From: Desulfatibacillum sp.
GTDB lineage: Bacteria > Desulfobacterota > Desulfobacteria > Desulfobacterales > SpSt-501
Direction of reading: 5' to 3'
Assembly (NCBI GenBank): GCA_020725555.1
Contig: DYEU01000031.1
Span: 52,761 to 116,760 of the forward strand
Length of the DNA: 64,000 nucleotides
Positions 11,805 to 62,800 of this stretch are shown here, piece after piece. The position numbers were made by a program, and so were the translations under genes. The notes under the pieces were generated by a model. It had not been told where the DNA came from and searched no databases. It was given only the letters and a program-made list of their open reading frames with translations. Every line of letters begins with the position of its first letter. Within the stretch, counting starts at the first letter, position 1.

Positions 11805-13946
11805 ATGATCCGGATCAACCAGATCCTCGACAAGATCGCCGCCTACGCGCCGGAGTCGCGCCTGGACCTCGTCGAGCGCGCTTACGTCTACTCGGCGCGC
11901 GTCCATGCCGGGCAGGTGCGGCTCTCGGGCGAGCCCTACCTGCTCCACCCCCTCGAGGTCGCCCACATCCTGGCCGAGATGCGCCTGGACGTCGTCAGCG
12001 TCGCCGCGGGGCTGCTTCACGACGTGCTCGAGGACACCGGGGCCCGGCCGGAGGAGCTGCGCGAGCTCTTCGGGGAGGAGGTGCTCGAGCTGGTCTCGGG
12101 GGTGACCAAGCTCAGCCTGCTGCCCGCCGTCTCCTCGCGGGAGCGCCAGGCCGAGAACATCCGCAAGATGTTTCTCGCCATGGCGCGCGACATCCGGGTG
12201 ATCCTCATCAAGCTCGCCGACCGGGTGCACAACATGCGCACCCTGCGCTTCCATTCCCCGGACAAGCGGCGGGAGATCGCCCAGGAGACGATGGACATCT
12301 ACGCGCCCATCGCCGGCCGGCTGGGCATCTACTGGATCAAGACCGAGCTCGAGGAAAACGCCTTCAAGTACCTCCACCCGGAGGAATACGCCCAGATCGA
12401 GCAGTGGGTGGCCACCTCGCGGGCGGAGCGCGAGGCCTACATCGAGAAGATGCGCGGGATCCTCCACCGCCGGCTGCAGGAAATGAACCTGAACGCCGAG
12501 GTGCTCGGCCGCAGCAAGAACTTCTACAGCATCTACTCGAAGATGCGGAAGCAGAACCTCCGCTTCGACCAGATCTACGACCTCACCGCCTTCCGGATCA
12601 TCCTGGACACGGTGCCCCAGTGCTACGAGGCCCTGGGGCTGATCCACTCCATGTGGAAGCCGATCGATTTCAAGTTCAAGGACTACATCGGCCGGCCCAA
12701 GCCGAACATGTACCAGTCGCTGCACACCACGGTCATCGGGCCGGAGGGCGAGCGGATCGAGATCCAGATCCGGACCTGGGAGATGGACCGCATCGCCAAG
12801 TCCGGCATCGCCGCCCACTGGAGCTACAAGGAAGGCCAGCGCTTCGACGAGGATCTGCTCAAGAAACTCGCCTGGATCCAGGACATCGTCGAAAACCAGG
12901 AGCAATTCCGCGATGCGGGCGAATTCCTGGAAAACGTGCGCATCGACCTCTTTCCCGACGAGGTCTACGTCTTCACCCCGCGCGGGGACATCCGCGCCCT
13001 GCCCAAGGGGTCGACCCCGGTCGATTTCGCCTACCTGATCCACACCGAGGTCGGCCACCGCTGCGCCGGCGCCCGGGTGAACGGCCAGATGGTGAGCCTC
13101 ACCTACGAGCTGCAGACGGGCGACATCGTCGAGATCCTCACCGCCCACCACCACCATCCCAGCAAGGACTGGCTCAAGTTCGTCCGCACGATCAAGGCGC
13201 GCTCCAAGATCCGGCAATGGATCAAGACCCAGGAGCGCGAGCGCAGCATCAGCCTCGGCCGGGAGATGCTGGAGAAGGCCTTCCGCAAGGAGCGGCTCAA
13301 TTTCGCGCAGCTCTTCCGCTCGGAGAAGATGGAGGCCGCGGCCGCCGCCCTGGGGTTCAAGACCCTCGACGACCTCGTCGCCGCCGTGGGCTACGGCAAG
13401 ATCACCCCCCTGCAGGTGGTGCGGCCGTTTCTCGCCGCCCCCCCCGCCGAGAGCGACCAGGGCTCCATCCTCGGCAAGCTGATGAGCCGCGTGCGGCGGC
13501 GCAAGCCGCGCGGCGGGGTGCTCGTGCGCGGCATGGAGGACATCCTGATCAAGTTCGGCCGCTGCTGCCAGCCGGTGCCCGGGGACCCGATCATCGGCTA
13601 CATCACCCAGGGCTACGGCGTGACCGTGCACCGGGCGGGCTGCGTCAACGCCCTGCGCAGCAACCCGGAGCGGCAGATCGAGGTCGAATGGAACGTGGAG
13701 ACCGCGGACACCTTCCCGGTGAAGATCCAGGTGATCTCCACCGACCGCCTGGGGCTGCTCGCCGATCTCGTGGGCAACATCAGCAAGCTGGGTGCCAACA
13801 TCCTGCACGCCGCCTCCGACACCAAGGAGAACCGGCTGGTGGAAAGCCGCTTCACCATCAGTGTCCATGACACGGACCACCTCGAGCGCATTCTCGGGGC
13901 GGTGCGTCGGGTCAAGCAGGTGCAGGACGCCTGGCGGGTCTCGTGA
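11805..13946 (+). CDS. relA: bifunctional (p)ppGpp synthetase/hydrolase (RSH family)
   Basis: HD hydrolase motif (HPLEVA, HDVLEDT), a synthetase domain (YQSLHTTV), and TGS and ACT C-terminal domains. Confidence 0.9.
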   Translation: MIRINQILDKIAAYAPESRLDLVERAYVYSARVHAGQVRLSGEPYLLHPLEVAHILAEMRLDVVSVAAGLLHDVLEDTGARPEELRELFGEEVLELVSGVTKLSLLPAVSSRERQAENIRKMFLAMARDIRVILIKLADRVHNMRTLRFHSPDKRREIAQETMDIYAPIAGRLGIYWIKTELEENAFKYLHPEEYAQIEQWVATSRAEREAYIEKMRGILHRRLQEMNLNAEVLGRSKNFYSIYSKMRKQNLRFDQIYDLTAFRIILDTVPQCYEALGLIHSMWKPIDFKFKDYIGRPKPNMYQSLHTTVIGPEGERIEIQIRTWEMDRIAKSGIAAHWSYKEGQRFDEDLLKKLAWIQDIVENQEQFRDAGEFLENVRIDLFPDEVYVFTPRGDIRALPKGSTPVDFAYLIHTEVGHRCAGARVNGQMVSLTYELQTGDIVEILTAHHHHPSKDWLKFVRTIKARSKIRQWIKTQERERSISLGREMLEKAFRKERLNFAQLFRSEKMEAAAAALGFKTLDDLVAAVGYGKITPLQVVRPFLAAPPAESDQGSILGKLMSRVRRRKPRGGVLVRGMEDILIKFGRCCQPVPGDPIIGYITQGYGVTVHRAGCVNALRSNPERQIEVEWNVETADTFPVKIQVISTDRLGLLADLVGNISKLGANILHAASDTKENRLVESRFTISVHDTDHLERILGAVRRVKQVQDAWRVS

Positions 13947-24362: not shown

Positions 24363-26731
24363 TTCGCGAGCGGGCCGCCGCGGGGGTCCCGGCCGGGGGG
24401 GTCGTCCCAGAAGCGCGCCAGTTCCTCGGCGAGCTCGCGCTCGTCGCGCACGGGCCGCGGCTTCCACGCCGGCGGCAGCAGCCGCCGGGTTTTCTCCTCG
24501 GCGTAGCGGCGGTCGAGGAGGAGCAGAACCCCCCGGTCGTCTTCCGAGCGGATGACGCGGCCGGCGGCCTGCAGCACGCGCTGGATGCCCGGGAAGCGGT
24601 AGGCGTAGTCGTAGCCGCTCTCCCCCCGGGCGGCGAAGTGGGCGCGGATGAGCTCGCGTTCGAGGCCGACCGCCGGGAGCCCGACCCCCACGACGGCCGC
24701 GCCGGAGAGCCGCGCGCCGGCGAGATCGATGCCCTCCCCGAAGGCCCCGCCCATCACGGCGAAGCCGACGAGCGTGCCGCCGCCCGGGGCCTCGAAGCGG
24801 GCGAGGAAGGCCTCGCGCTCGGCCTCGCCCATGCCCGGCTCCTGCACGAGGAGGTCGGCCCGCGGGCCTTCGCGGCGGAAGGCCGCGAGCACGAGCCGCA
24901 GGTACTCGTAGGAGGGGAAGAAGAGGAGGTAGTTGCCGCGGCGGCCTTCCACGAAGCGGCGGAGCATCCGGGCCACCTCGCCGCAGGTGCGGGCGCGGTC
25001 GCGGTAGACGGTGGAGACGGTGTCGGCGACGAACACGCCGAAGTGGCGCTCCGGGAACGGGGAGGGCAGCGTCAGGCTCCCCGCGGGGCCGCCCCCGAGC
25101 AGGGAGCGGAAGTAGTCCGGGGGCGAGAGGGTGGCCGAGAAGAAGACGGCCGCGCGGCAGCGGCGCAGGGCCTCGGCCATCGGCCGCGCCGGGTCGACGC
25201 AGAAGAGCTTGACGAGCAGATCCCGGGGCTCGGCCTCCCAGCAGGTGGCGTAGGCCTCGTCGAAGCGCTCGGCGATGCGCAGAAACGCCGCGGCCTCGAA
25301 GTAGCGTTCCTCGAGCTCCCGGCGGTAGGGGGTGCGGCGGTTCTTCTCGAGCCAGCCCTCCGCGGCCGACGCCAAGCCGTCGAGGTGCGCGAGGAGCTCG
25401 GCGGGCGGGTGAGGGTCGGCGACGGCGCCTCCCGCGGCGCGGGCCCGCAGGGCCGCGGGGGCGAGGCAGGCGTCGAGGTCCTCAAGGCGCCGGCGGATCG
25501 CCGGGAGGTCCCCGCCGAGCCGCAGGCCGAGCTCGCGCAAGGGGGACCGGCGCAGCTCGGCCGAGAACATCTCCCGCGAGCGCTCGGCGAGGTTGTGGGC
25601 CTCGTCCACGAGAAAGGCCCAGGGCCCGCCCTCCTCGAGGAAAAACCGGCGCAGAAAGGCCCGGGGGTCGAAGGCGTAGTTGTAGTCGCAGGCCACGAGG
25701 TCGGCCCAGCGGGCCAGGTCGAGCGAGAGCTCGAAGGGGCAGACCCGCTGGGCCCGGGCGGCCTCGGCCACGGCCTCCCGGGTCCAGGCCTCCTCGCGGA
25801 AGAGGGCTTCGCGCGCCGCGGGGAGGCGGTCGTAGTGGCCGGCGGCGAAGCCGCACTCCTCGGGGGTGCAGGCCGCGCCCGGCTGCAGGCAGGCCTTCTC
25901 CCGGGCGGTCAAGGCGAGGTGCTTGAGCCGCAGGCCCCGGCCGCGCAGGGCGGCGAGCGCGCTCTCGGCGGCCAGCCGGCCCGTCGTGCGTGCCGTGAGG
26001 TAGAAGATCTTCTCGCAGGAGCGCTCGGCGAGGGCGCGCACCGCCGGGTAGAGGACCGCGAGCGTCTTGCCGATGCCCGTCGGCGCCTGGATGAAGATCC
26101 GCCCGCCGCGCCGCAGGGCCTCGCGGACGGCACCGATCATCTCCTGCTGCCCCGGCCGGAAGGAGAAAAAGGGGAAGGCGAGCTCTCGGATGGAGGCGTC
26201 ACGCACCGCGGCCCAGGCGCGAAGCGCTTCCGCCCAGCGCAGGTAGCGGCCGACCACCTCGTCGAAGAAGGCCGCAAGTTCCTCCACGTCGTAGAGCCGG
26301 CGCACCGAGCGGGTCGCCCCGCTGTCCGTGCGGGCGTAGGTGAGCTGGACCTCGACGGCCGCGTGGCCGTGGGCGGCGGCGTAGAGAAAGGCGTAGATCC
26401 GCGCCTGGCCCCAGTGCAGCGGGTTTTCCTCGCGCAGGCACTCCCGCAGGGGGCGCCGCGTCGTCTTGATCTCCTCGACCCGCGGGAAGAGCCCGCCGGT
26501 GAAGACCCCGTCGAGCCGCCCGCCGACCCGCAGCCGCAGGCCTTCGCCCTCCACCGTGCGGGCGAGGGCGACCTCGGGGAGGTAGTCCGGGGGCCGCGAG
26601 GCCTGGATCCGCTGGTGCAGGCGCACGGCCTCGGCCGCGGCGGCGGCCCCCGTGAATTCGGCGCGCAGGTCCCCGCGGCGCAGCACGAACTCGACGAGCT
26701 CGCGCACGCCGACGGCGATTTCGGGGCGCAT
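24359..26731 (-). CDS. PD-(D/E)XK (RecB-like) nuclease fused to an XPD/DinG-type Fe-S DNA helicase
   Basis: The N-terminal domain has D...EEIK and QARIY nuclease motifs. The helicase has QAPTGIGKT, four Cys (CLQ, CTPEEC, CPFE), VDEAHNL and C-terminal motifs. The start is trimmed to ATG 26729-26731 and is uncertain. Confidence 0.8.
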   Translation of the reverse strand: MRPEIAVGVRELVEFVLRRGDLRAEFTGAAAAAEAVRLHQRIQASRPPDYLPEVALARTVEGEGLRLRVGGRLDGVFTGGLFPRVEEIKTTRRPLRECLREENPLHWGQARIYAFLYAAAHGHAAVEVQLTYARTDSGATRSVRRLYDVEELAAFFDEVVGRYLRWAEALRAWAAVRDASIRELAFPFFSFRPGQQEMIGAVREALRRGGRIFIQAPTGIGKTLAVLYPAVRALAERSCEKIFYLTARTTGRLAAESALAALRGRGLRLKHLALTAREKACLQPGAACTPEECGFAAGHYDRLPAAREALFREEAWTREAVAEAARAQRVCPFELSLDLARWADLVACDYNYAFDPRAFLRRFFLEEGGPWAFLVDEAHNLAERSREMFSAELRRSPLRELGLRLGGDLPAIRRRLEDLDACLAPAALRARAAGGAVADPHPPAELLAHLDGLASAAEGWLEKNRRTPYRRELEERYFEAAAFLRIAERFDEAYATCWEAEPRDLLVKLFCVDPARPMAEALRRCRAAVFFSATLSPPDYFRSLLGGGPAGSLTLPSPFPERHFGVFVADTVSTVYRDRARTCGEVARMLRRFVEGRRGNYLLFFPSYEYLRLVLAAFRREGPRADLLVQEPGMGEAEREAFLARFEAPGGGTLVGFAVMGGAFGEGIDLAGARLSGAAVVGVGLPAVGLERELIRAHFAARGESGYDYAYRFPGIQRVLQAAGRVIRSEDDRGVLLLLDRRYAEEKTRRLLPPAWKPRPVRDERELAEELARFWDDPPGRDPRGGPLAN

Positions 26732-26804
26732 CTCCGCCGCCGGGAGGTCCGCGGGGCGGGGCCGGGGGTCGGGGGCGGGGGCGGCGGGGGTCACGGCGCT
26801 TCCA

Positions 26805-26820
26805 CGGCGCGGGGTTTGCG
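26805..26820 (+). promoter_or_regulatory. candidate sigma-54 promoter upstream of the activator gene
   Basis: cGGCGC-N5-TTGCg with correct GG/GC spacing (GG 26806-07, GC 26818-19), 83 nt before ATG 26903. One mismatch in the -24 box. Confidence 0.35.
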
Positions 26821-26902
26821 ATCCATCGCAAAACCTGTTATCAGAACTCGGCCGTCTCCGCCAGGCGGAGGCGGCTTTCCCGACCTCGAGGACCCCGTCC
26901 GC

Positions 26903-27934
26903 ATGGCCGAACCCAACCGCTCGACACCCCGGGTCATTCCGCTCGCTGCCGGCGCCGCCATGCCGGGCCTGGTGGCGCAGAGCCCCTCGATGAAGCGCAT
27001 CCTGCGCATCGTGGAGAAGGCCGCCGCCAGCGACACCACGATTCTGCTGAACGGGGAGACCGGGACGGGCAAGGGCGTGCTCGCGCGCCTGATCCACGAG
27101 TGCTCGCCGCGCCGCGGCAGGCCCTTCGTGCCGATCAACTGCGGGGCGACCCCCGAGGGCCTGCTCGAGAGCGAGTTTTTCGGCTACCGCCGCGGCGCCT
27201 TCACGGGCGCCGTCGCCGACACGCCGGGCAAGTTCGAGCTCGCCGACGGCGGGACGGTTTTTCTCGACGAGATCGGGGACATGAGCCCCGAGCTCCAGGT
27301 CAAGGTGCTGCGGGTCCTCGAGGAGGGCGAGTTCGAGCCCGTGGGCGGGCGGGAGACGATCCGCATCAACGTGCGCATCATCGCCGCCACCCACCGCGAC
27401 CTCGAGGAGGAGGTCCAAAAGGGGGCCTTCCGCGAGGACCTCTTCTACCGGCTCCACGTGATTCCCATCGTGCTTCCCCCCCTCCGGGAGCGCCGCAGCG
27501 ACATCCCCTTTCTGGCCGAGCATTTCCTCGAGGAGTCCGCCCGCCGCAACCGGCGGCCGCCGATGCGTCTCTCCGCCGAGGCCCTGGAGGCCCTGGTCCA
27601 CTACCCGTGGTACGGCAACGTCCGCGAGCTGCGCAACCTGATCGAGCGGCTGGTGGTGCTGAAGGAGGGCGATCTCCTCGGCCTGGAGGACCTGCCGGAG
27701 AAGATCCGCGCCGCCCACCCCCTGCGGGAGAGGCGGCGGGCGGCCCTCCCGGCCGTCGAGGGGATATCGCTCCCGGCCGCGGTGCAGGAATTCGAAAAGG
27801 CCCTGATCCGCAGCGCGCTCGAGAAAGCGGGGGGGGTGAAGTACCGGGCGGCGGAGTTGCTCCAGATCAAGCGCACGACCCTCCTCGAGAAGATCAAGCG
27901 CTACCAGCTCGACGGCCTGGTGAACGAATCCTGA
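26903..27934 (+). CDS. sigma-54-dependent transcriptional activator (AAA+ plus Fis-type HTH, no sensory or receiver domain)
   Basis: GETGTGKG, ESEFFGYRRGAFTGA (intact GAFTGA), FLDEIGDM, GNVRELRN and the C-terminal HTH AAELLQIKRTTLLEKIKRY. Only the last 343 aa of track ORF 24638-27934 are real. Confidence 0.85.
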   Translation: MAEPNRSTPRVIPLAAGAAMPGLVAQSPSMKRILRIVEKAAASDTTILLNGETGTGKGVLARLIHECSPRRGRPFVPINCGATPEGLLESEFFGYRRGAFTGAVADTPGKFELADGGTVFLDEIGDMSPELQVKVLRVLEEGEFEPVGGRETIRINVRIIAATHRDLEEEVQKGAFREDLFYRLHVIPIVLPPLRERRSDIPFLAEHFLEESARRNRRPPMRLSAEALEALVHYPWYGNVRELRNLIERLVVLKEGDLLGLEDLPEKIRAAHPLRERRRAALPAVEGISLPAAVQEFEKALIRSALEKAGGVKYRAAELLQIKRTTLLEKIKRYQLDGLVNES

Positions 27935-27969
27935 CCCCGCATCCGGCGGGGCGGCGAAGCGGAAAGGGG

Positions 27970-29139
27970 ATGCGGCGGACGATGGAAGCGGCGGACATTC
28001 TCTTCGTGGACGACGACCGGGCGATCCTGGACCTCGTGGCCGAGTACCTCGAGGAGGCGGGCTACCGCGTGGAGTGCGCCGACAACGGCCTGCGCGCCCT
28101 CGAGCGCATCCGCGAGCGGCCGTTCGCCGTCGTCTTCACCGACATCAAGATGCCCGACATCGACGGCATCGAGCTCTTGAGCGCCATCAAGGCCCTGCGG
28201 CCCGAAACCGCCGTCGTCATGGTGACCGGACACGGGACGATGGAGTCGGCGATCCGCGCCATGAAGGCCGGGAGCTACGATTACCTGCAGAAGCCCTTCA
28301 AGCTCCCCGTCCTCCGGGACATCGTCGTGCGCATCCTCGGCGAGCGCCGGGCGCAGGGCGATGCGGGGCGGCCGGCCCCGCGCGGGGCCCTCCGGCACCG
28401 CTTGGGCCGGCTGGTCGGCATCAGCCCGCGCATGCAGGAGGTCTACGAGGGTCTCGAACGGGTGCGGGCGGGGGCCGGCCCGGTGCTGATCGAGGGCGAA
28501 AGCGGCACCGGCAAGGAGCTCGCCGCGCGGGTGCTCCACGAGCTCTCCGGGCCGGCCGAGCGGCCGTTCGTGGCCGTCGCCTGCCGCAGCGGCTTCCGCG
28601 GGCTCGAGGCCGAGGCCGCCGCGGAGCGCTTCGCCGAACTCTGGGCCGCCGCGGGGGAGGGGACGGTCTACCTCGACGAGCTCTGCGATCTGCCCGCCGT
28701 GGCCCAGGAAGCCCTTGCGCGCCTGGTCCGCTCCCGGCCGGCTTCCGCCGAGCCGGCCCTCCGGCCGCAGGCCCGGCTCGTCGCGGCGACCCAGAAGGCG
28801 GTGCGCGAGGCGCTCGCCCGCGGGGAGCTCGATGCCGGTCTCTTTCCGCTCTTCGGCGGCGCGCTGATCCGCATGCCGCCGCTCCGCGAGCGCCTGGAGG
28901 ACCTCTGTCTCCTCGTCCACCACTTCCTGGAGCGCTTCAACGCGCGGGGCGCCCGCCCGGTGTACACCGTGACCCCCGAGGTGATGGACATCCTGCACGC
29001 CTACCGCTGGCCGGGAAACCTGATCCAGCTCGAGAACGTGATCGAGCGCGCCTTCGCCCTCGGGGTCGAGGCGGTGATCCGCGTCGAGGACCTGCCGCCC
29101 GAGATCCAGACCGCGGGCGCGGTCCGGCGGATCTCCTGA
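27970..29139 (+). CDS. response regulator with a degenerate sigma-54-type AAA+ domain (no GAFTGA, no HTH)
   Basis: Receiver motifs are present (DDD, TDIKMPDIDG, QKPF). The AAA+ domain has GESGTGKE and YLDELCDL, but the GAFTGA segment is absent and WPGNLIQLEN replaces the GNVRELEN motif. The protein ends right after the AAA+ lid. Confidence 0.8.
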   Translation: MRRTMEAADILFVDDDRAILDLVAEYLEEAGYRVECADNGLRALERIRERPFAVVFTDIKMPDIDGIELLSAIKALRPETAVVMVTGHGTMESAIRAMKAGSYDYLQKPFKLPVLRDIVVRILGERRAQGDAGRPAPRGALRHRLGRLVGISPRMQEVYEGLERVRAGAGPVLIEGESGTGKELAARVLHELSGPAERPFVAVACRSGFRGLEAEAAAERFAELWAAAGEGTVYLDELCDLPAVAQEALARLVRSRPASAEPALRPQARLVAATQKAVREALARGELDAGLFPLFGGALIRMPPLRERLEDLCLLVHHFLERFNARGARPVYTVTPEVMDILHAYRWPGNLIQLENVIERAFALGVEAVIRVEDLPPEIQTAGAVRRIS

Positions 29140-29160
29140 CCCCCCGCGGCCCCCGCCCGC

Positions 29161-29733
29161 TCAGTCCGGCACCCCCGGGGCCGTGCGCAGCAGGATCGTG
29201 AGCCGCACGCCCGGGACCCCCCACGCGTCGAGCGCGCACTGCAGCCGGGCGACCGTCGGGACGCCGGGCGGCAGCACGAGGTCGAAGGCGAGCCGTGTTT
29301 CGCGAAAGCCCCACCCCCCGCACCGCGGGCAGACCCCGGCGTAGCCGCCCCGCCCGCCGCAGGCGCCGCAGGGCAGGCCGACGGGCAGGCGCAGCGGAAA
29401 AACCCCGCCCCGCCGCGCTTCCCGCGGGCTGAGCACGACCTCGAGGGCGATCTCCAAGCCTGCGCCGCGCGGCCGGGCGCGCGCCGGGCGCGCGCGCCGC
29501 GGCGGCGGCGGCGGCGGGGATTCCCGGCGGGCAAGGAGCGCGTCGTAGGAGCGGCGGCGCTCGGGCCGGCCGAGCGTCTCGTAGGCTTCGGTCACGTCGC
29601 GGAAGGCGGCGGCATCGGCGGTCGGGCCGCCCACGTCGGGGTGGAGCTCTTTGACCCGGCGGCGGAAGGCGCGCCGGATCTGGCGGGTCGTCGCTTCGCG
29701 GCTGACGCCCAGGATGAGGTAGTAATCTTTCAT
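29161..29733 (-). CDS. J-domain protein with one CxxCxGxG zinc-finger pair (short DnaJ-like)
   Basis: DYYLILGV...HPD J domain, then CGACGGRG and CPRCGGWG. Confidence 0.8.
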   Translation of the reverse strand: MKDYYLILGVSREATTRQIRRAFRRRVKELHPDVGGPTADAAAFRDVTEAYETLGRPERRRSYDALLARRESPPPPPPRRARPARARPRGAGLEIALEVVLSPREARRGGVFPLRLPVGLPCGACGGRGGYAGVCPRCGGWGFRETRLAFDLVLPPGVPTVARLQCALDAWGVPGVRLTILLRTAPGVPD

Positions 29734-29827: not shown

Positions 29828-30232
29828 TCAGGCACTCTGGACGGTGATCTTGCGGGGGGTCGCCTTTTCGACCTTGGGCAGGGTCAGGCGCAGCACCCCG
29901 TCCTGCAGCTTCGCCTCGATGCGGTTCTGGTCGATCACCTCGGAAAGGGTGAACTGGCGGTAGAACCGGCCCGTTTCGTACTCGACCAGGAGATCCTCCT
30001 CGTCGGGGTGCTCGAAGGGCTCGACGTCGCCCACGATCGTGAGGATGTTGTCGCGCAGATCGATGCTGAGCGTCTTCGGCTTCACCCCCGGGACGTCGGC
30101 GAGCAGCGTGATCGCCTTGTCGGTCTCGAAGATGTCCACATCCGGCGTGAACGTCGGGCCGGGGGTCGTCTGCTCGGCCTTTGCGGCAAGCTCCTGCTTC
30201 TCCTTCACCTTCAGCTCCTTGCTCTCGGCCAT
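29828..30232 (-). CDS. Hsp20/alpha-crystallin small heat-shock protein
   Basis: 134 aa with an alpha-crystallin pattern (DIFETDKAITLLADVPGV...GVLRLTLPK). The start is trimmed to ATG 30230-30232. Confidence 0.9.
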   Translation of the reverse strand: MAESKELKVKEKQELAAKAEQTTPGPTFTPDVDIFETDKAITLLADVPGVKPKTLSIDLRDNILTIVGDVEPFEHPDEEDLLVEYETGRFYRQFTLSEVIDQNRIEAKLQDGVLRLTLPKVEKATPRKITVQSA

Positions 30233-30249
30233 CGCCTTCACCTCCCTTC

Positions 30250-30699
30250 TCATTTCACCGTGATCTGACGGGGCTTGCTCGCCTCGGCCTTGGGGACGAC
30301 GATCGTGAGGATGCCGTCTTCGAGCCGGGCTTCGACCTTGTCGGGGTTGATTTCGCCGGGCAGCCCGATGACGCGCGAGAATTTCCCGGACTCGCGCTCC
30401 CGGCGATGGTAACGGGCATTGGAATTCTCGGCGGGGATCTTGCGCTCGCCGGAGATCGAGACGCTGTTGCCCGTCGCCTGGATGTCGAGGTCGGCGGCGG
30501 TCATTCCGGGGAGCTCCGCGCGGATGAAGTAGCTCTCCTTGGTCTCGGTCAGGTTGACGAGCGGGAAGACCCCGGAAACCGGGCGCGGCGAGGCCCACTC
30601 CTCGAACAGGCGGTCCATCTGGCGCCGCATGCGCTCGAGCTCGACGAACGGCGAGCGGGAAAACCATCCGGGAAAGCCGGTCAGCCTGCGGTAGATCAT
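30250..30699 (-). CDS. Hsp20/alpha-crystallin small heat-shock protein
   Basis: 149 aa (NLTETKESYFIRAELPGM...GILTIVVPK) with a GGAGGAG RBS. It ends 17 nt upstream of the second hsp20. Confidence 0.9.
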   Translation of the reverse strand: MIYRRLTGFPGWFSRSPFVELERMRRQMDRLFEEWASPRPVSGVFPLVNLTETKESYFIRAELPGMTAADLDIQATGNSVSISGERKIPAENSNARYHRRERESGKFSRVIGLPGEINPDKVEARLEDGILTIVVPKAEASKPRQITVK

Positions 30700-30749
30700 G
30701 GTTCTCCTCCTTTCTCGTTGCGGTGATGTTGCACTGCGTTGGCGCCGGT

Positions 30750-30778
30750 AAGGTAGGATCGAAAAGTTGGATGTCAAG
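30750..30778 (-). promoter_or_regulatory. candidate promoter (sigma-70 or heat-shock type) of the hsp20 operon
   Basis: On the minus strand, CTTGACA-N16-TACCTT lies in a markedly AT-rich island. A second TTGACA sits 27 nt further upstream (30799-30804). Confidence 0.3.
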
Positions 30779-30912
30779 ACAATGATGAGCATGAAGAATG
30801 TCAATGATTGATTTGAATTAGGCGGTTTTAGTAATGGAGATTGGGTGAGGCGGAGCCCCGCGCGCGGCGGCCCGGCCGCCGGGGTGCGGCCAGAGAACCG
30901 GTCGGCGTTTCT

Positions 30913-33432: not shown

Positions 33433-36090
33433 ATGTGGAGCTTCGCCATGGCGCACAGAACCCCGCTCTTTGAACGCCACCGGGCGCTCGGGGCCGCCTT
33501 CACCGAGTTCGCCGGCTGGGAGATGCCCCTGCACTACGCCGCCGGCATCGTCTCCGAGCACCTCGAGACCCGCCGCCGCTGCGGGCTCTTCGACATCTCC
33601 CACATGGGCCGCTTCCGCGTCACGGGCCCGGAGGCGCTCGCCTTGCTGCAGCGGGTGCTCAGCAACAACGCGGCCGCCCTCAACCCCGGGGAGGCCCAGT
33701 ACACCCTGCTCCCCGACGCCTCCGGCGGCGCCCTGGACGACGCCTACCTCTACCGGCTCACGGCCGGGGAGTACCTCCTCGTGGTCAACGCCGCCAACCG
33801 GGAGCGGGACCTCGAGCACCTGCAGGCCGCGGCGGGCGACGTTCCCGGGGTCGCGCTCGCGGACCTCACCTGCGAGACGGCCATGCTGAGCCTCCAGGGG
33901 CCGGAATCGCGGGGGATCCTCGCTTCGCGGCTCGGGGGGGGCTGCCTGCCCGAGCCCTTCCGCAACCGCCTCTGCGCGGCCTCCTGGCAAGGGGCCCCGC
34001 TGTGGATCAGCCGCACAGGATACACCGGCGAGCCGATCGGCTTCGAGATCTTTTGCGCGCCGGAGACCGCCCTCTCTCTCTGGGACGCTCTGGCCGCCGC
34101 CGGGGCCCAGCCGGTGGGTCTGGGCGCGCGTGACACGCTGCGCCTGGAGGCCGGCCTGCCGCTCTACGGCCACGAGCTGGGCCTGGACCCCGCGGGGCGG
34201 CCGATCCCCGTCTTCGCCTGCCCGGCCGCCCGCGCCGCCGTCAGCCTCTCGCCCCTCAAGGGCGACTTCGTGGGGCGGGAGCCGCTCACGCGGCAGTTCG
34301 AGGCCTGGCGCCGCTTCCTCGCCCGGGATTTCGCCCGCCTCGAGGATCTGCCGCGGCTCATCCGGCCGATCGCGCTGATCGACCGCGGGATCGCGCGGGC
34401 CGGGGCGACCGTGCTCCGGGCCTCGCAGCCGGCGGGATGGGTGACCAGCGGGACCATGGTGCCCTACTGGGTGACGGCGGGGGAGGGGCTCGCCTCGGTC
34501 CAGACCGGCGAGAAGGGCATGCGCGCCATCGGCCTCGCCCTGATCGACAGCGACCTCGAGGAGGGCGACGAGATCGAGATCGACATCCGCGGCCGGCCGG
34601 CGCGCGCCGTGATCGTCCCCTGCCACCTGCGCAACGAGGCCCCGCCCCGCGCCTGGCCCGTGCTCTGGCCCGAGGGCGGGGCGGAGCCGCCTGCCGCCCC
34701 CGCCGGCGACCCCGCCGCCCGGACGGCCGCGCTGGTCGCCCGGGCGGTCGAAAACCACCGCTGGCGCCAGGAAGCCTGCATCAACCTGATTCCCTCGGAG
34801 CAGACGCCTTCGCGGCTCGTGCGGCTGCTCTCCGTCACCGACCCCGTCGGCCGCTACGCCGAGCACAAGGCCCTCAAGGCGTTCCGCGAGGCCGACGTCT
34901 TCTTCTACCAGGGGACCGCCTTCATCGGCGAGGTGGAGCGGATGCTCGTCGACGGGCTGCGCCGCATGTTCGGCTGCCGCAACGTCGAGGTGCGCCCCAT
35001 CTCCGGGCAGATGGCCAACATGGCCGTCTACGGCGCCCTCCTCGACTTTCTCAACCGGGCCGACCGGCGGCGCGAGCCGCGCCGGCTGCGCGCGGTCCTC
35101 AACCACCACATCATCCGCGGCGGGCACCTGAGCGCGCAGCCTTCGGGGGCGCTGAAGGATTTCGTGATGCGCGAGTCGCGGCGCGAGCGGCCGGCGGCGC
35201 TCCCCTTTCCGGTGCTGCCCGAGGACCCCTTCCGCATCGACCTCGCCGCGACCCGCGAGCTGATCGCGGCGGCCCGCCCCGAGCTCGTGATCCTTGGCCG
35301 CAGCCTGACGATCTACCGCGAGCCCGTGGCCGAGATCCGGGCCGCCCTCCGCGAAACCGGCGTGCCGGCGGTCCTGATGTACGACGCGGCCCACGTCCTC
35401 GGGCTGCTCGGGCCCTCCTTCCAGCAGCCCTTCGCCGAGGGCGCCGACATCCTCACCGGCTCGACGCACAAGACCTTCTTCGGGACGCAGCGGGGACTCG
35501 TCGCCTGCGATTTCCCCCCCCGCGACCCCCGCTACCCCCTCTGGGAGGCGATCGAGCGGCGCACTTTCCCGGGCAGCCTGAGCAACCACCACCCGGGGAC
35601 CCTCCTCGGGCTGCTCGCGGCCACCTACGAGATGGAGCGCTTCGGCGAGGCCTACCGCGCGGCGGTGATCGAAAACGCCAAGGCCTTCGCCGCCGCGCTC
35701 GCCGCCTGCGGGCTGCGCGTGGCCGGGGACCCGGCCCTGTCCCACACCGAGACCCACCAGGTGATCCTGCTCGTGGGCTACGCCCGCGGGCCGCGGATCG
35801 CCAGGCGGCTCGAGGAAAACCACATCCTGCTCAACTTCCAGGCGGCCCCCGACGAGGAAGGCTTCACCGCCGCCGGCGCGCTGCGCATGGGCGTGCAGGA
35901 GATGACCCGCTTCGGCATGGGGCCCTCCGATTTCGCCGCGCTCGCCCAGCTGATCGCCGATTGCATCCTGCGCAAGACCCCGGTCGGCGAGGAGGTGAAG
36001 CGGCTGCGCCGCCGCTTCCGCGAGATGCGCTACTGCTTTTCGGGGCCCGAGGCCGAGGCCTGGCTCGAGCGGCTGCGGGAGCTGACCTGA
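33433..36090 (+). CDS. fusion protein: glycine-cleavage T-type aminomethyltransferase (N) and serine hydroxymethyltransferase-like PLP domain (C)
   Basis: A single 885-aa ORF. The N half has TPLFERH, FDISHMGRF, TGYTGE and GLGARDTLRLEAGLPLYG. The C half has INLIPSEQTPS, GRYAEH and GSTHKTFFG with the PLP lysine. The start may be 33433 or 33448. Confidence 0.8.
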   Translation: MWSFAMAHRTPLFERHRALGAAFTEFAGWEMPLHYAAGIVSEHLETRRRCGLFDISHMGRFRVTGPEALALLQRVLSNNAAALNPGEAQYTLLPDASGGALDDAYLYRLTAGEYLLVVNAANRERDLEHLQAAAGDVPGVALADLTCETAMLSLQGPESRGILASRLGGGCLPEPFRNRLCAASWQGAPLWISRTGYTGEPIGFEIFCAPETALSLWDALAAAGAQPVGLGARDTLRLEAGLPLYGHELGLDPAGRPIPVFACPAARAAVSLSPLKGDFVGREPLTRQFEAWRRFLARDFARLEDLPRLIRPIALIDRGIARAGATVLRASQPAGWVTSGTMVPYWVTAGEGLASVQTGEKGMRAIGLALIDSDLEEGDEIEIDIRGRPARAVIVPCHLRNEAPPRAWPVLWPEGGAEPPAAPAGDPAARTAALVARAVENHRWRQEACINLIPSEQTPSRLVRLLSVTDPVGRYAEHKALKAFREADVFFYQGTAFIGEVERMLVDGLRRMFGCRNVEVRPISGQMANMAVYGALLDFLNRADRRREPRRLRAVLNHHIIRGGHLSAQPSGALKDFVMRESRRERPAALPFPVLPEDPFRIDLAATRELIAAARPELVILGRSLTIYREPVAEIRAALRETGVPAVLMYDAAHVLGLLGPSFQQPFAEGADILTGSTHKTFFGTQRGLVACDFPPRDPRYPLWEAIERRTFPGSLSNHHPGTLLGLLAATYEMERFGEAYRAAVIENAKAFAAALAACGLRVAGDPALSHTETHQVILLVGYARGPRIARRLEENHILLNFQAAPDEEGFTAAGALRMGVQEMTRFGMGPSDFAALAQLIADCILRKTPVGEEVKRLRRRFREMRYCFSGPEAEAWLERLRELT

Positions 36091-60901: not shown

Positions 60902-61576
60902 TTACGCGCCCCGCCGCTCCCCGTCGCGCGCGGCCTTGAGGGCGGCGAGCTCGCGCTCGATCTCCTCGTCCCGCGAAAACCGCTCCAGGGATTCCGCGAG
61001 CTCCCCTGCGCCGGGGGGCAGGACGAGTTCGCCCTCGGCCTCGAGGCGGGCGATTTTCTTTTCGAACTCCTCAAAGCGCACGGCCGCCTGGACGCCTTCC
61101 AGGCGGCGGATCTCCTCCCGCGCCCGCCGCGCCCTTCCGGCATGGCGATGGCGCTCGGCGAGAAGCCGCTTCTTTTCCCGGGCCGCGGTCAGCTTTTCCT
61201 CGAGCAGGCGGATGTCGGCGAGGTACTGCGCGATCAGCGCCTGCTCCTCCTCGGCCTCGGCCGCGAGCGCCGCGGCCGCCTTCTGCCAGCGGCGCTTTTC
61301 GACCAGGGCCTCGCGGGCGAGATCCTCGCGCTCCTTGCGAAGGGCGACCTCGGCCTTCTCCGCCCAGGAACGGCTCTTTTGCCGGGCCTCCTCGGCCCGC
61401 CGCCCCCGCAGGCGCGCCTCGGCCATCAGGGCGGCGCAGGAGGACTTGAGCTCGACGAGCGTGTCCTCCATCTCGCGGATCATGAGGCGGATCATCTTCT
61501 CCGGGTCCTCGGCCCGGTCGAGCATGGCGTTGATGTTGGCGCTGACGATGTCGCGGAAGCGGGTGAAAATGCCCAT
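60902..61576 (-). CDS. pspA: phage shock protein A
   Basis: MGIFTRFRDIVSANINAMLDRAEDPEKMIRLMIREMED, the canonical PspA/IM30 N-terminus. GAGGAGGA RBS. Confidence 0.92.
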   Translation of the reverse strand: MGIFTRFRDIVSANINAMLDRAEDPEKMIRLMIREMEDTLVELKSSCAALMAEARLRGRRAEEARQKSRSWAEKAEVALRKEREDLAREALVEKRRWQKAAAALAAEAEEEQALIAQYLADIRLLEEKLTAAREKKRLLAERHRHAGRARRAREEIRRLEGVQAAVRFEEFEKKIARLEAEGELVLPPGAGELAESLERFSRDEEIERELAALKAARDGERRGA

Positions 61577-61624
61577 GGGGTCCTCCTCGCGGTCATCCGG
61601 GGGCGATCCGGTGCCTGGGAGAGG

Positions 61625-61640
61625 AGCAAGGACGATGCCA
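61625..61640 (-). promoter_or_regulatory. sigma-54 promoter of pspA
   Basis: On the minus strand, TGGCAT-cgtcc-TTGCT has exact GG/GC spacing. It lies about 50 nt upstream of the pspA ATG, facing divergent pspF. Confidence 0.6.
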
Positions 61641-61747
61641 GGGGATGGTGTTGGAAATGATGGACTTTTTCGCGTTCGTGGAGGGCCTCGTGAGGTGGGA
61701 AAAACCAAAGGATGGCAAATTTAACCCGATAATGGTAAAAAATCCCA

Positions 61748-62800
61748 ATGAAAACCTTTCATCGCCCTCCGCCTGGGGAGAGCCTCCCCGAGGCCCTCGG
61801 CGAGTCCGAGGCCTTTCTCGCCTTCCAGGAGAGGCTGGCGCGCGTCGCCCCCGTGCAGCGGCCGGTGCTGATCGTCGGCGAGCGCGGCACGGGAAAGGAG
61901 CTCGCCGCGATCCGGCTTCACTTCCTCTCCGGCCGCTGGCAGCGGCCCCTTGTCACGCTGAACTGCGCCGCGCTCTCCCCCGGGCTGATCGAATCCGAGC
62001 TCTTCGGCTATGAGCGCGGCGCCTTCACCGGCGCCGCCGAGCGCCGGATCGGACGCTTCGAGGCCGCCAACGGGGGCACCCTCTTTCTCGACGAGATCGG
62101 CAACGTGCCCCTCGAGGTGCAGGAGAAGCTCCTCCGCGCCGTGGAGTACCGGGTGATCGAGCGCGTCGGCGGCGCCGAGCCGGTGCGCGTCGATGTGCGC
62201 ATCGTGGCCGCAACCCACGCCGATCTGCCGGCGATGGCGGCGGCGGGCGCCTTCCGCCGCGATCTTCTCGACCGGCTGAGCTTCGAGGTGCTGAGGCTTC
62301 CGCCGCTGCGCGAGCGCGCAGGCGACGTCTCCCTGCTCGCCGAGCACTTCGCCCGCGCCATGGCGGCCGAGCTGGGCCGGCCGGAGCCGCCGCGGTTCTC
62401 CGCCGAGGCCCTCGCCGCCCTCCGTTCCTACCCTTTCCCGGGCAACGTGCGCGAGCTGAAGAACGTGGTCGAGCGCGCGGTCTACCGGGCCGCGGGGCCC
62501 GTCATCCGCGAGCTCGTCTTCGACCCCTTCGGCGGGGAGGGGAAAGCGCCGGAGGCGAAGGCTCCGGGGAAAGCCGCCCCGCCCGTTGCGCCTTCGCCCG
62601 CCGGGGGCGGGATGGCCGATCTCCTCGACCGGCCGCTGCCCGAGGCCGTGACCGAGCTCAAGCGGCGCATGCTCGCCCGGGCGCTTGCGGCCTGCCGCTG
62701 GAACCAGCGCCGCGCGGCCGCGCGGTTGGGCCTGGGCTACGATTCCTTCCGCAGCCTCTACCGGCGGCTGCGCGATGCGCTCCCCCCGCCCGTGGGCTGA
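61748..62800 (+). CDS. pspF: sigma-54-dependent activator PspF (AAA+ plus HTH, no receiver)
   Basis: LIVGERGTGKELAA, ESELFGYERGAFTGA, FLDEIGNV and GNVRELKN, plus the C-terminal HTH AAARLGLGYDSFRSLYRRL. Divergent from pspA. Confidence 0.85.
   Translation: MKTFHRPPPGESLPEALGESEAFLAFQERLARVAPVQRPVLIVGERGTGKELAAIRLHFLSGRWQRPLVTLNCAALSPGLIESELFGYERGAFTGAAERRIGRFEAANGGTLFLDEIGNVPLEVQEKLLRAVEYRVIERVGGAEPVRVDVRIVAATHADLPAMAAAGAFRRDLLDRLSFEVLRLPPLRERAGDVSLLAEHFARAMAAELGRPEPPRFSAEALAALRSYPFPGNVRELKNVVERAVYRAAGPVIRELVFDPFGGEGKAPEAKAPGKAAPPVAPSPAGGGMADLLDRPLPEAVTELKRRMLARALAACRWNQRRAAARLGLGYDSFRSLYRRLRDALPPPVG

Follow-up and report, generated by a model that had tools for sequence, protein, structure and literature searches.

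The window analyzed here, a stretch of 64,000 nucleotides from Desulfatibacillum sp. (assembly GCA_020725555.1, contig DYEU01000031.1), carries at positions 26903-29139 two adjacent genes of the + strand, designated gene 1 and gene 2, whose products are both related to the bacterial enhancer-binding proteins (bEBPs), the AAA+ activators of sigma-54-dependent transcription. An earlier inspection of this DNA, based on the letters and open reading frames only (referred to below as the sequence-only reading), had drawn attention to the pair, and its claims are considered here together with the results that bear on them.

Gene 1 (26903-27934, + strand) encodes a protein of 343 aa, composed of an N-terminal tail of approx. 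22 aa, an AAA+ domain with the GAFTGA motif, a lid and a Fis-type helix-turn-helix (HTH). It was matched in Pfam by Sigma54_activat (PF00158; residues 23-189, 7e-70, 234 bits), AAA_lid_14 (residues 195-276) and HTH_8 (residues 295-334, 1e-11), and no Pfam domain precedes residue 23, which indicates that a sensor domain is lacking. Both Walker motifs are present (GETGTGKG and FLDE), the L1 loop reads RGAFTGAV (residues 97-104), and the segments ESEFFGYRRGAFTGA, FREDLFYRL and GNVRELRN are all intact, so that both arginine fingers and sensor II are kept. Gene 1 therefore has the features (Walker A/B, arginine fingers, sensor II) that define the clade-6 AAA+ sigma-54 interaction domain and, judging from its domains, is a bEBP of the group-4 (sensor-less) type, built of AAA+ and HTH only. 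bEBPs without a sensor domain are controlled in trans by other proteins (PMC7175178, Table 1), and since gene 1 is of this type, trans control of its product is plausible.

The sequence-only reading had described gene 1 in the same terms (only AAA+ and HTH, intact GAFTGA, no sensory domain), in agreement with the Pfam and motif data; its statement that the protein must be controlled in trans is made plausible by the group-4 architecture. Its comparison with PspF and PspA holds for the sensor-less architecture and is otherwise loose, as a true PspF/PspA pair is located elsewhere in the window. Gene 1 is not PspF: it reached the cut-off of none of the NCBIfam equivalogs (for PspF, TIGR02974, 259.7 vs the 443.55 bits needed), and the pspA-like gene lies 34 kb off, beside another sensor-less activator. 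The N-terminal part of gene 1 (residues 1-22, window 26903-26968) contains a peptide, SNxxxxxK[IV]IPI, which is kept in most orthologues, except in the L017/18/20/25/27/34 subclade, and which might be a docking or regulatory tail.

Gene 2 (+ strand) ends at 29139. Its first ATG is at 27970, and the likely true start is the ATG at 27982 (M5), which is favored by the N-termini of orthologues and by the spacing from a Shine-Dalgarno-like AAAGGGG in the spacer between the genes (27935-27981, + strand). The sequence-only reading had placed the start of gene 2 36 nt after gene 1, one base off (27970, not 27971). Pfam revealed matches to Response_reg (residues 10-119, 1e-30), Sigma54_activat (residues 149-292, a weak match of 2e-19) and AAA_lid_14 (residues 306-382, 5e-23), and no match to an HTH or other DNA-binding domain; the protein stops 7 residues past the lid. 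The receiver (REC; 27991-28335, + strand) has its active site intact (DD, D58, T86 and K108, in the motifs FVDDD, FTD58IKMP, VTG(T86) and QK108PF). It is followed by a degenerate AAA+ alpha/beta core (28411-28869, + strand), in which Walker A (GESGTGKE) and Walker B (LDE) are retained and the L1/GAFTGA region is deleted at approx. 28606-28647, and by the lid and C-terminal tail (28870-29139, + strand; WPGN[VL]IQLENVIERAFAL ... DLPxEIxTxGEI..).

Alignment of gene 2 with NtrC1 of A. aeolicus (PDB 1NY5, 1.6e-63), with gene 1 and with the closest canonical relatives revealed several losses: (i) an 11-residue deletion, which removes FGxxxGAFTGA, (ii) both arginine fingers, the segment FRxDLYYRL (FREDLYYRL) being replaced by LDAGLFPLF, (iii) the sensor II arginine, replaced by isoleucine where GNVRELEN (GNVRELxN) reads GNLIQLEN, (iv) the asparagine of the glutamate switch (VNC changed to VAC), and (v) part of the pre-sensor-I (L2) segment, which is shortened and non-conserved. 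Much of this had been noticed in the sequence-only reading, namely the complete receiver with its TDIKMPDIDG context, the two Walker motifs, the replacement of ESELFG..GAFTGA by the shorter GLEAEAAAERFAELWAAAGEG, the altered GNVRELEN motif and the absence of a DNA-binding domain behind the AAA+ part. Each of these was recovered, and the alignment to NtrC-family proteins which that reading had suggested disclosed neither a GAFTGA-equivalent loop nor a C-terminal HTH. The loss of the arginine fingers and of the switch asparagine and the shortening of L2 had not been listed.

Judging from these losses, it is not plausible that gene 2 makes contact with sigma-54, binds DNA by way of an HTH or provides arginine fingers; the earlier claim that it is unable to contact sigma-54 or DNA is thus supported by the L1 deletion and the missing HTH. 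Gene 2 does not qualify as a functional sigma-54 activator, since it has no GAFTGA, arginine fingers, sensor II arginine or DNA-binding domain. The last of these is not universal among sigma-54 activators (FlgR and CtcC have none). Gene 2 is not NtrX either: it scored 234 bits against the NtrX equivalog NF051870 (cut-off 600), and the HTH is absent.

The structure of gene 2 was modeled with AlphaFold2 from a 45-sequence alignment, which replaced a 13-sequence run with a poor lid (pLDDT 68). The model (mean pLDDT 85, pTM 0.73) contains an unbroken helix (residues 214-228, pLDDT >90) and no hairpin at the place of the L1 hairpin, and a C-terminal helix at residues 377-388. Foldseek ranked the inactive state of NtrC1 first, followed by NtrX, NtrC4, LuxO, FleQ and VpsR, and isolated bEBP AAA+ domains matched the model with TM-scores of 0.74-0.79. 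The predicted fold is therefore still that of a bEBP AAA+ protein, nearest to the receiver-gated, inactive NtrC1. Because of the losses seen in the alignment, the intact receiver residues and the results of modeling and structural comparison, we regard gene 2 as a predicted bEBP-fold pseudo-ATPase joined to a working receiver.

Gene 2 is a member of a well-populated family. A search of 5.8 billion proteins revealed hundreds of homologues of 377-390 aa (54-92% identity), all with the REC-AAA-lid arrangement and without an HTH. In a library of representatives at 50% identity the family forms approx. 4 clusters, and the next matches are ordinary REC-AAA-HTH regulators of 450-470 aa. Among the GTDB species genomes, the family was found in approx. 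30 metagenome-assembled genomes (MAGs) labeled Desulfobacterales, Desulfobacteraceae, Desulfatibacillum or delta proteobacterium; two MAGs are labeled otherwise (L007, Hyphomicrobiales; L023, Gammaproteobacteria). The reading frame is intact in approx. 35 species-level genomes, and the same gene 2 sequence recurs across many independent hot-spring metagenomes. The hosts of the pair are a clade of uncultured Desulfobacterales-like bacteria, and the pair of the window belongs to a lineage of high GC content, encountered mostly in metagenomes of hot springs.

A census of 37 family members (about 37 were sampled) revealed that the L1 deletion, the change of the sensor II arginine to isoleucine, the absence of an HTH with conservation of the tail DLPxEI[KR]T[AF]GEIS.. 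and the intact active site of the receiver are common to all of them (37/37 in each case). Walker A is unchanged in 30 of the 37, and a 16-residue motif of the lid is identical in 29/37. Other positions vary: Walker B is mostly DE (also DD, NE and EE), the switch asparagine is absent in roughly half of the members, and the arginine fingers are gone in most, with the second arginine kept in one subclade. As the losses shared by all members examined are the same, they are not a matter of chance.

The mode of selection was assessed from dN/dS values (Nei-Gojobori) for gene 2 of the window and its three closest relatives. The ratio was 0.15-0.26 overall, 0.17-0.23 in the degenerate core, 0.04-0.20 in the lid and 0.04-0.23 in the receiver; the linker between receiver and AAA+ part (0.4-1.2) is the only relaxed region in this high-GC subclade. 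The low ratios, together with the family-wide occurrence of the same losses, show that gene 2 is maintained by purifying selection and is not decaying. Mean pairwise identities, calculated per region in 29 matched species, were 74% for the gene 2 receiver (gene 1 has none), 46% for its AAA+ core (83% in gene 1), 70% for the lid (57% in gene 1) and 65% for the C-terminal tail (76% for the HTH of gene 1), so that the pattern of core and lid is inverted between the two proteins. Since identity is high in the receiver, lid and tail and only 46% in the core, selection on gene 2 acts mainly on the former regions and not on the catalytic core, a pattern more in keeping with binding than with catalysis.

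The two genes are inherited as a unit. In 33 of 36 loci, gene 1 is the next gene upstream of gene 2 and is read in the same direction; the spacer in these 33 loci measures -1 to 151 nt (median 54), and a terminator scan detected no terminator-like site between the genes. Two of the exceptions are due to contig ends, which lie just upstream of gene 2 (L031) or cut gene 1 before its GAFTGA (L032). The third is L023, and no other locus with sufficient upstream DNA has a broken pair: a DDE transposase gene (L023:2539-3957) occupies the place of gene 1, directly upstream of an intact gene 2. Starting from homologues of gene 1, a neighbor of the gene 2 type was found in all three loci sampled. The conservation of the genes as neighbors, which the sequence-only reading had proposed to check, is thus seen from both sides. 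In a metatranscriptome contig from a relative 94-95% identical, gene 1 runs straight into gene 2 (one contig).

The pair stays together when its surroundings change. In the main subclade it is accompanied by genes for Rce1-like, UbiA and DUF4124 proteins, a divergent DinG-like helicase, a J-protein, two Hsp20 proteins, LysM, DUF4124, PilZ and OsmC proteins and a GcvT-SHMT fusion, and this wider neighborhood of the window is kept only there. The flanks in the other subclades consist of lutABC with genes for a Cys/Met PLP enzyme and a Ser/Thr-kinase-like protein, or of OmpA, MarR, DsrE and TusA genes. The pair is intact despite these replacements, including in loci where all flanking synteny is lost. 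We conclude that genes 1 and 2 form a conserved, co-inherited two-gene operon, which is probably co-transcribed.

The origin of gene 2 was examined by maximum-likelihood phylogeny of 119 sequences, covering AAA+ and lid. The gene 1 clade is monophyletic (SH-aLRT 99). The gene 2 clade (SH-aLRT 82, rising to 97 with the aberrant protein P0137) branches from within the canonical REC-AAA-HTH regulators (L035, L036, P0126 and P0127), far from gene 1. Its position indicates that gene 2 descends from canonical REC-AAA-HTH activators, and an origin by tandem duplication of gene 1 was rejected. The gene 1 and gene 2 clades fall into the same three subclades, which points to co-inheritance of the two genes. 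Both the co-encoding and the co-inheritance expected of a hetero-oligomeric bEBP pair are therefore seen here, in the 33/36 adjacency and in the congruent subclades.

The closest canonical relative of gene 2, from locus L036, retains GAFTGA, LRKDLYYRL, GNVRELEN and the HTH, and the most basal gene-1-like gene lies approx. 400 nt after it. This arrangement suggests that two complete activators were already neighbors before one of them degenerated. The receiver-bearing member of such a pair probably lost its contact with sigma-54, its catalytic activity and its binding to DNA, and its lineage probably kept the receiver, nucleotide pocket and lid and gained a new C-terminal tail. The L036 regulator adjoins a divergent cluster of CheA-CheW-REC, CheB and CheY genes (L036:400-10602), and the canonical relative in L035 adjoins genes for flagellin, a CheY-like protein, HDOD, a GAF histidine kinase, CheX and REC proteins (L035:570-9386). 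The arrangement in L036 and L035 may represent the ancestral state of the pair; as to its input, the neighboring genes give a faint hint of a chemotaxis-type kinase.

Two further observations concern relatives of the family. P0137 (401 aa), which is basal to it, has the lid GNVIQLENVIERAFAL and no HTH, yet still contains ESELFGHEKGAFTGA in intact form, together with one arginine; it represents either an intermediate stage of evolution or a chimera produced in assembly. P0129, P0133 and P0153 are metagenomic chains with two or three tandem AAA+ modules of the bEBP type, some without GAFTGA or Walker A (e.g. REC-AAA-AAA* and AAA*-AAA*-AAA-HTH), and could be the cis-linked counterparts of mixed rings.

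We propose, with about even confidence for and against, that gene 2 is a phosphorylation-gated regulatory subunit whose binding partner is the AAA+ domain of gene 1; the proposal rests on the sequence data described above and on analogy with known bEBPs. In regulators of the NtrC1/DctD type, the receiver gates assembly of the AAA+ domain. In the case of gene 2, a kinase would phosphorylate Asp58, and this would alter the availability of the AAA+/lid module in a similar way; the module would then join the AAA+ domain of the gene 1 protein, thereby setting the activity of gene 1 at distant sigma-54 promoters. Arginine fingers work in trans across ring interfaces (PMC7175178), and the interface contributed by gene 2 to a mixed ring would be hydrolysis-dead, because gene 2 has no arginine fingers, sensor II arginine or L1 loop to supply. 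As this would apply to any gene 2 interface, we lean slightly towards a negative role, as a poison subunit or anti-activator, over that of an obligate co-activator. There is a precedent in RedR, where an inactive partner inhibits the active one via the central domain (PMC10084136). It is possible, if rather less than evenly so, that the pair represents a new class of output in two-component signaling, in which the effector domain of the response regulator is a dead AAA+ domain serving as a phosphorylation-switchable subunit (poison or gate) in the ring of a separate, sensor-less activator, a "split NtrC" which arose by subfunctionalization of neighboring activators and not by fission or duplication.

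Several points weigh against the proposal of a regulatory subunit. Adjacency proves co-inheritance and probably co-expression of the genes, not co-assembly of their products, and the sign of regulation rests only on reasoning about ring interfaces. The variable Walker B and the few members with one arginine mean that the nucleotide-handling state is not uniform across the family. Moreover, we found no target promoter, enhancer site or cognate kinase; near the pair, a conserved -24/-12 element is absent from the 64-kb window and from approx. 0.5 Mb of related family loci, and the output of genes 1 and 2 therefore cannot be linked to any particular gene.

Three other explanations of gene 2 were weighed. 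It could be a positive co-activator without which gene 1 is unable to form an active ring, as in HrpR/HrpS or FleQ/FleT, the phosphorylated protein nucleating or completing a mixed ring that activates transcription. The known bEBP pairs are indeed co-dependent activators (PMC10084136), FleT likewise has no DNA-binding domain (PMC7175178), the L036 locus suggests an ancestral pair of complete activators, and with Walker A kept in most members the nucleotide pocket is largely intact, so that ATP binding could drive assembly. We nevertheless consider such a role unlikely, since most members have lost both arginine fingers and all have lost the sensor II arginine and L1; in an alternating ring, the ATP sites of gene 1 would have no trans finger and those of gene 2 no cis loop coupling, and the mixed rings formed by RedR with an inactive partner are inactive (PMC10084136). 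Decay of a pseudogene or paralogue, or an artefact of assembly or annotation, would account for the many missing catalytic motifs, for the relaxed linker and for the frameshifts seen in one of the two genes in L037 and L015. This explanation is effectively refuted by the reading frame, which is intact across the species-level genomes and hundreds of proteins from metagenomes, by the low dN/dS with an invariant receiver site and a lid motif identical in most members, and by the recurrence of the same sequence in independent hot-spring metagenomes.

The third possibility is that gene 2 acts independently of gene 1, its AAA+/lid part binding another partner (another AAA+ protein, RNA polymerase or a sigma factor, a chaperone, or a nucleotide second messenger, as in FleQ/VpsR), and that the adjacency reflects only a shared operon or physiology. 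Roles independent of sigma-54 are known for relatives without GAFTGA (NtrX, VpsR, TyrR and NtrC of Caulobacter), NtrX and VpsR are among the best structural and sequence matches of gene 2, and its best-conserved parts, the lid and a C-terminal tail peculiar to the family, could dock to anything. All of these precedents, however, keep an HTH and act on DNA, whereas gene 2 has no HTH. The adjacency, moreover, has survived at least three complete changes of neighborhood with congruent trees, which would be difficult to account for if the genes had no direct functional connection, and at the level of the fold another bEBP AAA+ domain is the one conserved partner that the operon offers. An independent role thus seems improbable to us, though it deserves serious consideration, and association with gene 1 is the explanation we prefer.

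The regulatory surroundings of the pair were analyzed in the window and the related loci. The sequence-only reading had named a candidate sigma-54 promoter at 26805-26820 (cGGCgC-N5-TTGCg). This site has three mismatches to TGGCAC-N5-TTGCW and is not conserved: its GG-N10-GC spacing is not kept in L003 and L004 and is lost outside the closest high-GC subclade. The sigma-54 assignment was therefore rejected. A conserved, sigma-70-like -35/-10 element upstream of gene 1, TTGCGA-N17-TATCA[GA] (26816-26844, + strand), is present there instead; it occurs at the same distance in 19 main-clade loci (L001-L016 less L015, L022 and the window), also in L086 and L087. The -10 of TTGCGA-N17-TATCAG is without the terminal T, and a strict sigma-70 scan makes no call. 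The element overlaps a palindrome, TTTGCGAT-CC-ATCGCAAA (26815-32). The promoter region of gene 1 (window 26731-26903; L004:6835-6944) is shared with the divergent gene of the DinG-like helicase; the dyad TTGC-N5/8-GCAA could serve as -35 in both directions, and a near-palindromic, conserved CTGnTAnCAG around the -10 of gene 1 might be an operator.

Upstream of the neighboring genes and downstream of gene 2, no conserved sigma-54 promoter was found in the window or in the approx. 0.5 Mb of related loci. The only perfect match to TGGCAC-N5-TTGC in the window (13782-13797, - strand) is located inside long overlapping ORFs and is probably due to chance. Some Desulfovibrio enhancer-binding proteins reportedly have a sigma-54-dependent small RNA gene downstream; such a gene was rejected downstream of gene 2, where there are no conserved matches and no Rfam matches. 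A recurring TGGGACGTTCGTTGCC falls within the OmpA gene, which is convergent, and most likely belongs to its coding sequence (it would encode GNERP). Neither annotation of the neighbors nor a motif scan revealed a histidine kinase near the pair, as the sequence-only reading had also noted; the neighbors are genes for the DinG-like helicase, the J-protein and the two Hsp20 proteins.

The hsp20 and J-protein genes were rejected as a target operon, since there is no -24/-12 upstream of them and they are absent from many loci of the family. The two hsp20 genes (window 29828-30840) are preceded, in an AT-rich island, by a conserved sigma-70/sigma-32-like element, CTTGACAT-N16/17-TAAATT or TACCTT, and by a further conserved CATTACT approx. 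60 nt upstream, with no sigma-54 element. At 29139-29170 a close relative differs from the window: the J-protein gene of the window is on the - strand, whereas in a metatranscriptome contig of the relative (run X23) the start of this gene (ATGAAAGATTACTAC...) follows directly after the gene 2 stop, on the + strand; the difference is due either to an inversion in the relative or to an assembly artefact. Further downstream (33433-36090) lies a gene for an 885-aa GCV_T-SHMT fusion, with 65-84% identity across the main subclade.

A phage-shock module is located at 60902-62800 of the window, with a PspF-like sensor-less activator (61748-62800, + strand) and a divergent pspA (start at approx. 61576, - strand). 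A canonical sigma-54 promoter, TGGCATCGTCCTTGCT (61625-61640, - strand), lies approx. 50 nt before the pspA start. This module serves as an internal control: sigma-54 promoters of this DNA look canonical, and sigma-54 is in use.

Hetero-oligomers of bEBPs are known, i.e. HrpR/HrpS, FleQ/FleT and RedR1/RedR2 (PMC10084136). HrpR/HrpS of Pseudomonas syringae is a co-dependent pair reported to form hetero-hexamers (Jovanovic et al. 2011, as cited in PMC10084136). Like it, genes 1 and 2 are tandem, co-evolving paralogues of the bEBP AAA+ type, at least one of which is sensor-less and needs trans control, and function is thought to lie in a mixed ring, which for the present pair is proposed from sequence. 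In contrast to gene 2, HrpR and HrpS both keep GAFTGA, the catalytic residues and the HTH, and neither has a receiver. HrpR/HrpS are controlled via a third protein, HrpV, whereas here the receiver sits on the dead partner itself, and gene 2, instead of arising by tandem duplication, comes from a bEBP lineage different from that of gene 1. FleQ/FleT of Cereibacter (Rhodobacter) sphaeroides (Poggio et al. 2005, as cited in PMC7175178 and PMC10084136) resembles the pair in combining a DNA-binding bEBP with a second bEBP-like protein without a DNA-binding domain, the hetero-oligomer being known for FleQ/FleT. FleT also has no receiver and is described as an activator subunit on which most promoters depend, whereas gene 2 has a receiver and is without GAFTGA, arginine fingers and the sensor II arginine.

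Other systems share single features with the pair. In PspF-PspA, HrpS-HrpV and FleQ-FleN, a sensor-less or atypical bEBP is restrained by a second protein. Gene 1 likewise consists of AAA+ and HTH only, and the co-encoded gene 2 is the obvious candidate for its regulator, but PspA, HrpV and FleN are neither AAA+ bEBP paralogues nor response regulators. NtrC1, NtrC4 and DctD, with the best PDB matches of gene 2 (1NY5 and 3DZD), have the same succession of receiver, helical linker and AAA+ as gene 2 (33-34% identity); unlike gene 2, they are complete activators, with GAFTGA, arginine fingers and HTH, which form homo-oligomeric rings. With NtrX, VpsR, TyrR and Caulobacter NtrC, gene 2 shares an AAA+ domain without the sigma-54 loop, and with NtrX and VpsR also the N-terminal receiver, but these proteins keep a DNA-binding domain and act at sigma-70 promoters. 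The literature searched (full text) contained no receiver-bearing, loop-deleted, finger-less and HTH-less bEBP paralogue paired with a sensor-less bEBP. The related proteins described there are either GAFTGA-less with an HTH, HTH-less with GAFTGA (FlgR, CtcC and FleT), or co-dependent pairs of complete bEBPs.

Sigma-54 activators are textbook AAA+ machines run by their own sensors, and only a handful are known to be under trans control or to function as mixed rings. The pair described here splits sensing and acting between two paralogous AAA+ proteins, of which the sensor is a pseudo-enzyme, with a proposed interaction between them. If this is true, the pair would provide a natural system for studying (i) the number of active subunits, of L1 loops and of arginine fingers required by a bEBP ring, (ii) the regulation of AAA+ rings by pseudo-ATPases, and (iii) the evolution of regulatory subunits from full enzymes. 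It would also represent a compact two-protein switch, in which a phosphorylation input sets the activity of a constitutive activator and which could serve in synthetic circuits.

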